Source: Candidatus Thorarchaeota archaeon
Lineage (GTDB): Archaea; Asgardarchaeota; Thorarchaeia; Thorarchaeales; Thorarchaeaceae
NCBI GenBank assembly: GCA_048884965.1
Contig: JBHLQH010000049.1
Location: 1 to 18,466, forward strand
Reading direction: 5' to 3'
Length of the DNA: 18,466 nucleotides
Shown here: piece after piece, positions 1 to 3,290 of the stretch
Layout of the letters: each line of letters starts with the position of its first letter
Numbering within the stretch: position 1 is the stretch's first letter
Program-made: the position numbers and the translations under genes
The notes under the pieces: model-generated
What the model saw: the letters and a program-made list of their open reading frames with translations, nothing else
The model's database searches: none
What the model was told of the DNA's origin: nothing

Positions 1-2
1 CG

Positions 3-68
3 GCATGGCAAGAAGGATATAAAATGACGCTAGAAGAAGCAATTTCAAGCGTGACCAGTAATATCTGA
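3..68 (+). CDS. C-terminal end of a gene entering from the left edge (AWQEGYKMTLEEAISSVTSNI*), resembling the helical tail of TPR/ATPase-TPR proteins
   Basis: Open frame from base 3 to TGA at 66-68; W-x-EG-x-x-MTLEEAI pattern recalled from TPR-protein C-termini; truncated by the window. Confidence 0.45.
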   Translation, partial: AWQEGYKMTLEEAISSVTSNI

Positions 69-209
69 GTGTATTTCATTAAAAGGGATCGCATAGTAAT
101 GCTATCTCTAATCCATCCTACAATCAAGTAATACTCATGTCATACCACTTTGGTTTCGCTACCATCGGGGTGGAAACATCCCTCTCTATCTTTCTTATTT
201 CTTGATACA

Positions 210-710
210 TTAATCTTCCCAAATGAAGACATGATTGCATTGGTCATGACCTTCCATCAACGTCTTTGTTCGTTTCAACTTTAATCTGGGATTCATAGTC
301 TTAATGAATGAGTGATCTTGATCACAACCAATAATCAATCCCAATTCTTCCGCACCAAGATCTCGAAAGGTCTTCGCGAACAAACATTCTGAATAGCTGC
401 AATGTAACTCAGTATCTGATTCATGTGGAAAGTCAACAGAAACAACTTGTGAGAAGTACTCCCCATATGATACAGTCTTCCAATAATTCTTGAATTCCTC
501 AAAACTCGAGGCTCGTTCCTCGCCAACTGATTTTATACTTGAGCGTTCACTCCAATCCCGAACAACTTTCAGAAGTTCTTCTCGCGGTATCACCTTTTCG
601 AGTTCGTTGAAGAAAGATACTAAACGAGTGTACCTCTGGTGGAAGAGTTGTTGATATGTGATTTGAATCTTATTTTGAAACTTGTGTGATTGGTTCTCTG
701 CCATTGTCAA
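210..710 (-). CDS. L-2-amino-thiazoline-4-carboxylic acid (ATC) hydrolase family protein (V4R-like fold)
   Basis: Signature ECLFAKTFRDLGAEELGLIIGCDQD...KLKRTKTLMEGHDQCNHVF; start is TTG at 710 or ATG at 704. Confidence 0.8.
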   Translation of the reverse strand: MTMAENQSHKFQNKIQITYQQLFHQRYTRLVSFFNELEKVIPREELLKVVRDWSERSSIKSVGEERASSFEEFKNYWKTVSYGEYFSQVVSVDFPHESDTELHCSYSECLFAKTFRDLGAEELGLIIGCDQDHSFIKTMNPRLKLKRTKTLMEGHDQCNHVFIWED

Positions 711-818
711 TCCTCATATGAAGGATTTACTTCAAGTATAAGGACACCAAATAATAGTATGAACAACGCAATTTTGAAGTTGCGTGTCCACTCTTTCAGT
801 CTTACAAGAGAGGAGACT

Positions 819-998
819 ATGAATGCGATCTGCAGGTCAGAGTGCTTAGAAATTGCGCCAGAGTACAAGAGAAAAGAGCTATTTGCCAAAGCCGATATCA
901 AAGCCAAGAAAGAATTGGTCAAGCTATTTGAAGCCAAGACAGCCCCTGAGCTTTACTTTGCGCTCGATGGTGAGATAATCGGTTTTGTGAATGAATGA
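819..998 (+). CDS. Small hypothetical protein (59 aa), possibly part of a decayed gene
   Basis: GAGGAG Shine-Dalgarno 3 nt before ATG 819; protein-like composition; stop overlaps the next ATG (ATGA at 995-998). Confidence 0.4.
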   Translation: MNAICRSECLEIAPEYKRKELFAKADIKAKKELVKLFEAKTAPELYFALDGEIIGFVNE

Positions 999-1204
999 TT
1001 GACAAAGACCGAGTTTCGAAATGCATTGGATGACTCTCTTGAAGAGTTGCAATAGATTTGAAAAGACAATTCCAATGATACGTGCTTCTAGAAATAGATG
1101 ACACAGCCAAAAATCGAGTTGGCTTGGTTGAAAAAGTGAAAATTCAGATTCAGCAAGACGGGGGGATGTGCATCCGGATTGGAATACATATGCTATCTAA
1201 ATAG
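995..1204 (+). pseudogene. Possible fragmented gene remnant
   Basis: Coupled ATG at 995 opens only 12 codons; protein-like pieces continue in other frames (TKTEFRNALDDSLEELQ*; 1082-1204 VLLEIDDTAKNRVGLVEKVKIQIQQDGG...). Confidence 0.25.
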
Positions 1205-1208
1205 AAAA

Positions 1209-1231
1209 TGGTAGCGGGTGAAGGATTTGAA
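1209..1231 (-). repeat. Exact inverted copy of the 3' 23 nt of the neighbouring tRNA-iMet (att-like site)
   Basis: Reverse complement of 1209-1231 is TTCAAATCCTTCACCCGCTACCA, identical to 1501-1523. Confidence 0.95.
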
Positions 1232-1316
1232 GTGCCTTCCTGGATGACCTCTCTGTCTTTGATGGGTTGTTGGTATCCTGCTTGCACTTGTCAGGTCCGA
1301 GAATGCAGGGACTCAT

Positions 1317-1330
1317 GAAAAGCCTTAAAA
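1317..1330 (+). promoter_or_regulatory. Putative BRE/TATA promoter of the tRNA
   Basis: GAAAAG-CCTTAAAA about 50 nt upstream of the tRNA 5' end. Confidence 0.45.
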
Positions 1331-1402
1331 CTCGGAGCAGTGCTTTCTCTTTTACGACCAACACAATTGGTTTTCCAAGATTAGCGGGTTGGGGAAGCCA
1401 GG

Positions 1403-1436
1403 TGGCGTTTGGAGTCATTCCGAACGTCTGGCATTC
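1403..1436 (+). other. Non-canonical D-loop tRNA intron (about position 19/20 or 20/21; boundaries +/-2 nt)
   Basis: GCCA(1397-1400)/TGGC(1429-1432) 4-bp helix, 3-nt bulge GGT, 10-bp intron hairpin 1404-1413/1419-1428: bulge-helix-loop; removal restores GGGAAGCCAGGTATCCC. Confidence 0.85.
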
Positions 1437-1454
1437 TATCCCGCGGGGCTCATA

Positions 1455-1484
1455 AGGCGCAGCCTGAGAGCTTCGCACGGGGAC
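1455..1484 (+). other. Canonical 37/38 tRNA intron (30 nt)
   Basis: Interrupts the anticodon loop CTCATA^A; relaxed BHB with CTC pairing to GGG at 1480-1482 and one mismatch in the central helix. Confidence 0.9.
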
Positions 1485-1577
1485 ACCCCGAGATCGAAGG
1501 TTCAAATCCTTCACCCGCTACCACCTCTTCTTCTAACAAGCAGTTCTAATAGATTCCTTTGACGTTGCTCCAGACGG

Positions 1578-1592
1578 TGAAGGACTTATCTT
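1578..1592 (+). promoter_or_regulatory. Conserved upstream element / probable promoter of gelsolin gene 1
   Basis: TGAAGGACTTATCTT, identical to 2321-2335 and at the same distance from its ATG; spacing fits a leaderless archaeal promoter. Confidence 0.6.
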
Positions 1593-1615
1593 TATTCGAT
1601 ACTAGAACCAATCAA

Positions 1616-2197
1616 ATGATATGGAATTGGTTCTCAGTCAATGTGAATGGAAACTGGATTGATTTTCAAACATCTGGCAAGCTGGGCATTACGATAGTCA
1701 TCAGGTATAATGATGAGATTGTAGTCACCGAAAGGATGGGGGCCTTTTCTTCTAGACACAGATCGTTCGAATTCGAAGGTGAGGAGGATGGCTCGAATGT
1801 TCGTTATCTCGTAGAGATGATTCCGTTGTACCGCACATTGAGTTTCATTCTATACAGAGATGGAGTGCTAATTCTAACATCTCAAAGAACACGAAAGAAG
1901 ATTCCTCCTTCAGTCGACTTAGATACACCAGCACGATGTTATACGATACAGGACTCAGGCGAGGTCATCGAGATAGCAGAGGGAGCTGTAAACCTGGATT
2001 CATCAAGTGTCTATTGTTTTGTTCACAATGGCAGAAAAACCATCTATCTTTGGAGGGGGAGAAACGCAGGTTTCCGAATGAGGATTCTAGGTACAGAAGC
2101 TGCAGATGCCTTGAAAAAGCAGTTTGGACGCGACTTTAGGATACAGTACATTGACGAGGGTGCTGAGCCGGCAGGATTCATGAATGTAGTTAGATGA
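1616..2197 (+). CDS. Gelsolin-domain protein with N-terminal beta-rich domain (paralog 1)
   Basis: C-terminal LDSSSVYCFVHNGRKTIYLWRGRNA...IQYIDEGAEPAGF matches the gelsolin repeat; start moved to ATG 1616 by alignment with paralog 2. Confidence 0.85.
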   Translation: MIWNWFSVNVNGNWIDFQTSGKLGITIVIRYNDEIVVTERMGAFSSRHRSFEFEGEEDGSNVRYLVEMIPLYRTLSFILYRDGVLILTSQRTRKKIPPSVDLDTPARCYTIQDSGEVIEIAEGAVNLDSSSVYCFVHNGRKTIYLWRGRNAGFRMRILGTEAADALKKQFGRDFRIQYIDEGAEPAGFMNVVR

Positions 2198-2253
2198 TCA
2201 TTTCTGAACTTGATGCCATTCCTTCTCATCATGTAATAGTTGAATCTCTACAA

Positions 2254-2276
2254 CCTCAACCTGCTACCACTTCTTC
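2254..2276 (+). repeat. Degenerate direct copy of the tRNA 3' end and trailer; tandem duplication junction
   Basis: CCTCAACCTGCTACCACTTCTTC vs 1508-1530 CCTTCACCCGCTACCACCTCTTC (19/23). Confidence 0.8.
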
Positions 2277-2320
2277 GAAGTCTTTCTTCCAATAGACTTC
2301 CGTGATGCTTCTCTGAATGA

Positions 2321-2335
2321 TGAAGGACTTATCTT
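2321..2335 (+). promoter_or_regulatory. Conserved upstream element / probable promoter of gelsolin gene 2
   Basis: Identical 15-mer to 1578-1592, same spacing to ATG 2359. Confidence 0.6.
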
Positions 2336-2358
2336 GTTTCAGTACATGAGTCAGCCAA

Positions 2359-2937
2359 ATGAAATGGAATGGGATATCCTTCAGTGTAAATGGGAATTGG
2401 ATAGATTTCTGGATTGAGGTGAACTGGAGGAGAAAGGCGATAATTGAGTACAATGGAGAACCAGTAGTGACTGAGAAACTTGGATTGATTAATTCAAGAA
2501 GAATATTCGAATTTGACATCTTTGAGGAGGGAATATCTGTGAACTATCTCATAGAGATGTCTCCAATAGGACACTCAGTAGGGTTCGAGGTGTTTAGAGA
2601 TGGTGAGCCTATCATTGTAGTCAGGGGTGATCGGAAGAATCTTCTCAAACAAGCCACACTTGGTGGAGAGATAAAATGCTATGAGGTTGTAAGCTCTGAA
2701 AAAACCATTGAGATACCAAGAGGTGGAATGAACATGGACTCATCAAGCGTCTATTGTTTGGTGCATCCAAACAGAAGAACCATATATCTTTGGAAGGGGA
2801 AGAATGCAGGGTTCCTAATGAAGCTCAATGGTGATAGCGCTGCAGCAAGACTAAGGGGTGAGTTAGGAATCAACTATAGAATTGTACGTATAGAAGAAGG
2901 CGATGAACCCTCTGAATTCAGAGGAGTGTTCGAATAG
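2359..2937 (+). CDS. Gelsolin-domain protein with N-terminal beta-rich domain (paralog 2)
   Basis: MDSSSVYCLVHPNRRTIYLWKGKNAG...IVRIEEGDEPSEF gelsolin motif; colinear with 1616-2197 over the full length. Confidence 0.85.
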   Translation: MKWNGISFSVNGNWIDFWIEVNWRRKAIIEYNGEPVVTEKLGLINSRRIFEFDIFEEGISVNYLIEMSPIGHSVGFEVFRDGEPIIVVRGDRKNLLKQATLGGEIKCYEVVSSEKTIEIPRGGMNMDSSSVYCLVHPNRRTIYLWKGKNAGFLMKLNGDSAAARLRGELGINYRIVRIEEGDEPSEFRGVFE

Positions 2938-3029
2938 GAGAAACTGTTCATCAATAGTTCCTTTTCTTGTAATAGTTGACCTCAAAAGAGAAGAGGGGGA
3001 CAGGTATCTGTCAGCAGTGACGGTGTTCA

Positions 3030-3290
3030 ATGATGATCTTCGAGATTGGGTTTCTAGTTGCGGTCTATGCCATATGGCTCCTTACACTGGTCAATTCCAT
3101 GGTATCCAGTGAGGAGGTGTCTCTCACCGTAGCAACGATCCCTTTCATCGTGACCTTTCCCATAGCCCTTATCCTAGCTGCAGCTGCTGAAGTATACGTT
3201 CCAGGCATCTTCATGATTGATGTCCTAGTGACATCTATCGTGGGAGTACTCATCTTCGTGCGATGGGTCATGGCGATTGCTGGCGAATGA
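3030..3290 (+). CDS. Small hypothetical membrane protein (about 3 TM helices)
   Basis: 86 aa with three hydrophobic stretches; fills the gap convergent to rps27ae. Confidence 0.65.
   Translation: MMIFEIGFLVAVYAIWLLTLVNSMVSSEEVSLTVATIPFIVTFPIALILAAAAEVYVPGIFMIDVLVTSIVGVLIFVRWVMAIAGE

Follow-up and report, generated by a model that had tools for sequence, protein, structure and literature searches.

An inverted copy of the initiator tRNA 3' end as a probable stranded separator in a two-sided thorarchaeal cassette array

We analyzed a window of 18,466 nt, the entire contig C49 of a Thorarchaeota-like genome (4.09 Mb, 95.7% complete, from which mobile DNA may be absent). It holds a single initiator tRNA-Met (tRNA-iMet) gene whose 3' end recurs upstream in inverted orientation. 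Positions 1209–1231 are the exact reverse complement of 1501–1523 (23/23), with the arms 269 nt apart. By a rough estimate, ~6e-6 perfect inverted pairs of 23 bp would be expected in DNA of such length, and a search of the 4.09-Mb assembly allowing up to 3 mismatches returned no copy of the 23-mer beyond these two. The features of the locus are as follows:

1–1208, no strand: cassette Y, with the last 68 nt of a DUF4062-NB-ARC-TPR gene, an ATC-hydrolase gene and a thioredoxin-like ORF
210–704, minus strand: ATC-hydrolase gene, in cassette Y
819–998, plus strand: thioredoxin-like ORF with a premature TGA, in cassette Y
1186–1208, minus strand: pyrimidine-rich, terminator-like trailer behind the inverted copy; the congener G005 has this same trailer behind its intact tRNA
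1209–1231, minus strand: exact repeat, in inverted orientation, of the tRNA-iMet 3' end from T-loop to CCA; separator at the head of the left stack, which faces the core
1232–1311, no strand: 80-nt spacer between the inverted copy and the tRNA promoter and leader
1312–1382, plus strand: tRNA promoter and leader, with a family-conserved BRE/TATA-like motif, GAAAAGCCTTAAAA, near 1318–1331
1383–1523, plus strand: initiator tRNA-Met gene, single, with a D-loop intron (~1403–1434) and an anticodon intron (1455–1484)
1524–2246, plus strand: right cassette 1, with a gelsolin-domain gene (1616–2197) that has its own promoter-like motif
2247–2269, plus strand: decayed direct copy of the tRNA 3' end (16/23), separating the two gelsolin cassettes
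2270–2976, plus strand: right cassette 2, with a gelsolin-domain gene (2359–2937) whose protein is 45% identical to the first
3030–3290, plus strand: conserved 85-aa membrane-protein gene, the right-hand anchor, found in 75 of 86 genomes

ARAGORN and Rfam miss the tRNA gene because of its two introns. With the introns removed in silico, ARAGORN called a tRNA-Met(cat) with the A1-U72 pair present, and this gene is the sole match in the genome to the iMet 5' pattern. It points towards the rps24e cluster, the opposite of the majority arrangement. The promoter and leader share 82% identity with G005 and ~45% with other congeners. The 80-nt spacer has no homologue in the spacers of relatives or elsewhere in the genome and no significant fold, and a look-up of a 36-aa ORF lying over it returned no match. 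On the minus strand, the inverted copy is preceded by GAAGG plus CAC and followed by TTTTCT, just as a sequence-only reading of this DNA had described along with the exact 23-nt repeat. That reading also took the T-stem dyad to be preserved. This part did not hold up: the GAAGG arm is shifted 3 nt out of register and closes a loop of 10 nt, not 7. The dyad is therefore not retained as an att-type core, and the comparable copies of relatives lack an arm of this type. Its expectation that recombination between the copies would rebuild an intact tRNA was borne out by simulation, in which a crossover between the 23-mers flipped a 315-bp unit containing the promoter and tRNA.

To the right of the tRNA lie two gelsolin cassettes of ~745 bp each. 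Both gelsolin genes share a promoter-like 15-mer ~24 nt ahead of their starts, and the cassette genes appear, from such motifs, to have their own promoters. Read-through control from the tRNA into the gelsolin pair or the ATC-hydrolase side, as proposed earlier, is not needed, because pyrimidine trailers stand on both sides and the gelsolin genes are preceded by this 15-mer. A search among 5.8 billion proteins with the 193-aa gelsolin-domain protein (window 1616–2937) found only itself at similar length; its N-terminal half is unannotated. Farther right, at ~3860, an insertion of 2.9 kb carrying an integrase fragment is present in G004 and the contigs of G005 break, so that the interval between rps24e and rpoE is probably a second insertion point.

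To the left, cassette Y continues beyond the window. In GCA_048883605.1 (L069), an independent assembly of this species with a 99.97%-identical core, and in two Logan contigs, Y stops just past window position 1 at a second tRNA 3'-end copy, also facing the core, beyond which come a third gelsolin gene and then conserved core genes. This second copy (L069:7123-7182) is joined to a truncated NB-ARC/TPR gene via a 2-nt overlap and keeps a 30-nt T-loop intron, like that of the congener G006. Today's tRNA is without it, which implies that the tRNA allele was replaced or that the intron was lost. The tRNA therefore sits at the center of a two-sided array: two units lie to its right and two to its left, bounded by tRNA 3'-end copies with pyrimidine trailers.

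Cassette Y is 95.5% identical to a cassette behind the intact tRNA in G005, versus ~70% for core genes, indicating that Y moved recently. It follows the intact tRNA in G005 but the inverted copy in this genome, and the junctions are base-identical. We considered G005 as the flipped state of the window's locus and ruled this out: measured against the conserved flanks, its tRNA points the same way as the window's, and only Y changes side. Within Y, the thioredoxin-like ORF (window 819–1055) has TGA at 996–998 where the G005-type allele has an Arg codon, which reads as a probable nonsense change rather than selenocysteine. A look-up of the ATC hydrolase returned no match.

The same junction and orientation recur in the second assembly, which has SNPs of its own (98.3% identity over window 1–1449), so the inverted copy is not an artefact of one assembly. 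Both assemblies of the species (n=2) thus carry the tRNA in the same orientation. Approximately 13 of the 24 differences between them cluster at 1338–1436 (leader and D-loop intron). Set against a 99.97%-identical core, this cluster would read as a locally exchanged promoter-tRNA. The locus lies in Logan contigs from runs SRR30758811–SRR30758818. Logan contigs end precisely at the repeat, and in the same run the sequence branches at window position 1, an indication that G005-type sequence is also there. The breaks can therefore be explained by a co-occurring G005-type organism, whose Y variant is probably the branch. Two co-occurring species with diagnostic SNPs would then share one cassette at the tRNA-iMet locus. 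The spacer-copy junction had no match in the genome contig collection.

We compared the tRNA-iMet locus across relatives. In Thorarchaeota it is a stack of small cassettes with ragged copies of the tRNA 3' end between them. Direct copies of the iMet 3' end downstream of the tRNA are frequent in the 86 family genomes. In G048 (L041/L042, G048:C10:4598-26670), ~15 direct copies of the tRNA-iMet 3' half lie 0.7–3.8 kb apart, and the array carries deaminase, HNH and toxin-antitoxin-like genes. Copy lengths are ragged family-wide (10–56 nt), with 22–23 nt in seven of 52 copies; inverted copies (11–23 nt) resemble direct ones. In other arrays, the internal copies show no ordering by decay (G066).

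Using DUF134 and the 85-aa gene as conserved anchors to orient the locus, we found the tRNA pointing towards the core in ~31 genomes and away from it, as in the window, in 22. Both orientations occur inside genera g1 and g6, and the comparison of relatives that the sequence-only reading had called for thus revealed the two orientations across genomes. Inverted copies are present in only three of the ~20 loci that are turned around relative to the majority orientation, whose ancestral status is assumed. The inverted-copy layout occurs in just three of 60 genomes, and inverted upstream copies were found in this species (G000), G005, G046 and G086. Three of these four copies lie 49–91 nt from the promoter (80 nt in G000, 49 nt in G005 and 91 nt in G046). 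The spacers are unrelated to one another, and flips between the repeats could not have produced them. The G005 copy starts at the T-loop, like the window's, and has a T-stem mismatch. A tree of flanking proteins, small and poorly supported, does not group G000 with G005. In G046, a 65-bp relic (L137:5512-5576, G046:C122) comprises the promoter and the 15 leading nt of the tRNA and matches the live gene at 98% identity; a crossover between repeats would not leave a remnant of this kind. If contigs C122, C228 and C251 of G046 join, a layout that rests on split genes in a genome with 7% contamination, its tRNA faces the core, its inverted copy faces away and the relic lies on the core side. Extra tRNA 5' fragments also occur in G081, G008 and G069.

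We then asked which enzymes might act at the locus. The earlier reading saw no recombinase in the window, and this extends to the rest of the 95.7%-complete genome: there was no match to PF00589, PF16795, PF00239 or PF02371 (tyrosine, SSV-type, serine and IS110), and tblastn with 18 thorarchaeal integrases found none. G005 has no PF00589 match. None of the 18 thorarchaeal integrase loci inspected lies at the iMet end (0/18). Searching metagenome and viral collections with the 23-mer returned only unrelated tRNAs and no contig with a thorarchaeal attP. In genus g6, a conserved gene of 400 aa lies upstream of the tRNA; considered as an invertase, it encodes a flavodiiron protein instead. At 14 loci of relatives, tRNA-iMet has beside it genes for a HerA-like ATPase, for a large protein with a LAGLIDADG-like domain at its end and for a 200-aa partner (L136:10394-11287, L043, L091, L120, L056 and others). 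This module is downstream and convergent in ten loci and upstream and co-directional in four. A fold search with the LAGLIDADG-like domain gave no match at E ≤ 0.001; the best, at 6.5e-3, was to homing endonucleases. The genome studied here has only a decayed fragment of the module, elsewhere, and G005 and G086 have none. We speculate that the module is a candidate cutter at the tRNA.

These observations suggest, with a probability of roughly 0.6, that the inverted 23-mer is a stranded separator, left when the tRNA was turned around by breakage and rejoining. The copy is on the core side, facing the core as the 3' end of the majority tRNA does, and it heads its own stack of cassette Y, the second copy and the third gelsolin gene. 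It would have begun as an ordinary separator of the tRNA-iMet cassette array and been stranded afterwards. The tRNA gene would repeatedly be broken and repaired with incoming or neighboring DNA carrying an intact promoter-tRNA, one end being joined by homology and the other by short microhomology, while the old 3' end would stay behind. A new promoter-tRNA landing in the same orientation would turn this leftover into a direct separator, and a reversed one would turn it into an inverted upstream copy, as in the window. The repeat itself would not act in regulation. The ragged leftovers, the swapping of tRNA alleles and the landings in reverse argue for break-and-repair rather than site-specific recombination.

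Some observations weigh against the stranded separator. The copy is still exact, the recent arrival of Y behind it would need either a recent turn-around or entry at the copy, and distances of 49–91 nt to the promoter would rarely be expected from random breakpoints. Among the earlier suggestions, a fossil att site from a rearrangement comes closest: the idea of a fossil stands, but as part of an integrase-free cassette array and not as a classical att site. If the stranded-separator reading is right, the essential single-copy tRNA that anchors thorarchaeal arrays is itself repeatedly replaced and turned, which would constrain how the arrays grow. With three gelsolin-domain genes in the cargo, eukaryote-like cytoskeletal genes would move by such a route.

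Occasional, unprogrammed inversion between the 23-mers, by RadA-type host recombination or a visiting integrase, would be compatible with the stranded separator as a secondary process, and we regard it as possible though rather unlikely. The simulated flip of the 315-bp promoter-tRNA unit rebuilds an intact tRNA, but the two assemblies of the species show a single orientation, and the pTN3 integrase requires ~104 bp for such inversions (PMC8371274). The position of Y, behind the tRNA in G005 and behind the copy here with base-identical junctions, could be the trace of a flip; however, Y could alternatively have entered at the copy, given that decay does not order the internal copies of other arrays (G066), G005 is oriented like this genome relative to the conserved flanks, and its copy has the T-stem mismatch. 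The left copies are exact and the right one has decayed to 16/23, as if the tRNA had recently faced left. Provided that the G046 join is correct, loci with the repeat are found in either orientation across species. The Logan breaks at the repeat are explicable by the co-occurring G005-type organism. It is unlikely, in our judgment, that the sole initiator tRNA flips in living populations and alternately seeds gene capture into the left and right stacks. If true, an Asgard archaeon would have a platform that captures genes in two directions with no integrase, in this case carrying gelsolin actin regulators.

We consider it very unlikely that the copy is a classical attR/attP scar of a tyrosine-integrase element that was inverted later. 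Its start does fall exactly on the T-loop, in a region that integrases are known to target (PMC8371274), but copy boundaries are ragged overall, even though seven of the 52 family copies share its 22–23 nt length. The sequence-only reading rightly called the geometry atypical, since the copy is inverted and upstream instead of a direct downstream repeat. No integrase was found next to it, and the survey of integrase loci and the search for a thorarchaeal attP weigh against this origin.

A programmed phase-variation switch, in which a dedicated invertase would direct read-through to the gelsolin pair or the ATC-hydrolase side, has very little going for it. The promoter lies within the flanked segment and 23 nt falls within the 10–40 nt repeat range of bacterial invertons (PMC11892184), but flanking genes differ in every species and no promoter-less target gene is conserved. 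The first ORF left of the copy is antisense and broken, and the trailers and the gelsolin genes' own promoter-like motif argue against read-through. As an integrase-driven switch, the proposal also meets a genome where no recombinase was found, spacers unrelated between species and a layout confined to three of 60 genomes, most turned-around loci having no inverted copy. An antisense element or an assembly artefact is scarcely credible: a plus-strand transcript of 1209–1231 would complement the tRNA 3' end, but no promoter or structure is conserved, and contigs break near the locus, but the second assembly repeats the junction with its own SNPs and similar layouts occur in G005 and G046.

Finally, we compared the locus with known systems; no paper on such a tRNA layout, or on the integrase-free direct arrays of Thorarchaeota, was found in the literature. 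Archaeal tyrosine integrases target the tRNA T-stem loop or 3' end and re-create an intact tRNA, chromosomal inversions are caused by integrated elements and by the pTN3 integrase, and att sites have been proposed as vectors of tRNA introns (PMC8371274). Compared with the pTN3 inversions, the window's repeat is 23 bp against a reported minimum of 104 bp (PMC8371274), no such enzyme was found, and the segment is 0.3 kb and holds the sole initiator tRNA. Bacterial invertons such as fimS, hin and Bacteroides promoters (PMC11892184) likewise have short inverted repeats around a promoter-bearing segment; unlike them, the window has repeats made of tRNA sequence, no invertase found and no conserved target gene. 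The tycheposon islands of Prochlorococcus also have modules behind a tRNA with partial tRNA copies between them, and integrase-less remnants are common among them (bioRxiv 10.1101/2020.12.28.424599). Their copies come from integrase-carrying elements, whereas no integrase was found in the window's genome and copy lengths are ragged. The direct tRNA-fragment arrays of Thorarchaeota share with the window the same separators, the tRNA-iMet anchor and a locus with no integrase, but their copies are co-oriented with the tRNA, whereas the left copies at this locus face away and make the array two-sided. Cassette Y, joined at a copy through the same junction in G005, is a unit shared between genomes. 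By these comparisons the window's locus behaves as an accreted tRNA island does; its likeness to an inverton is superficial. Unlike in tycheposon islands, in the thorarchaeal locus the tRNA changes orientation and stacks face both ways; the window's locus contributes an array with two sides and an anchor tRNA whose orientation turns across the family.
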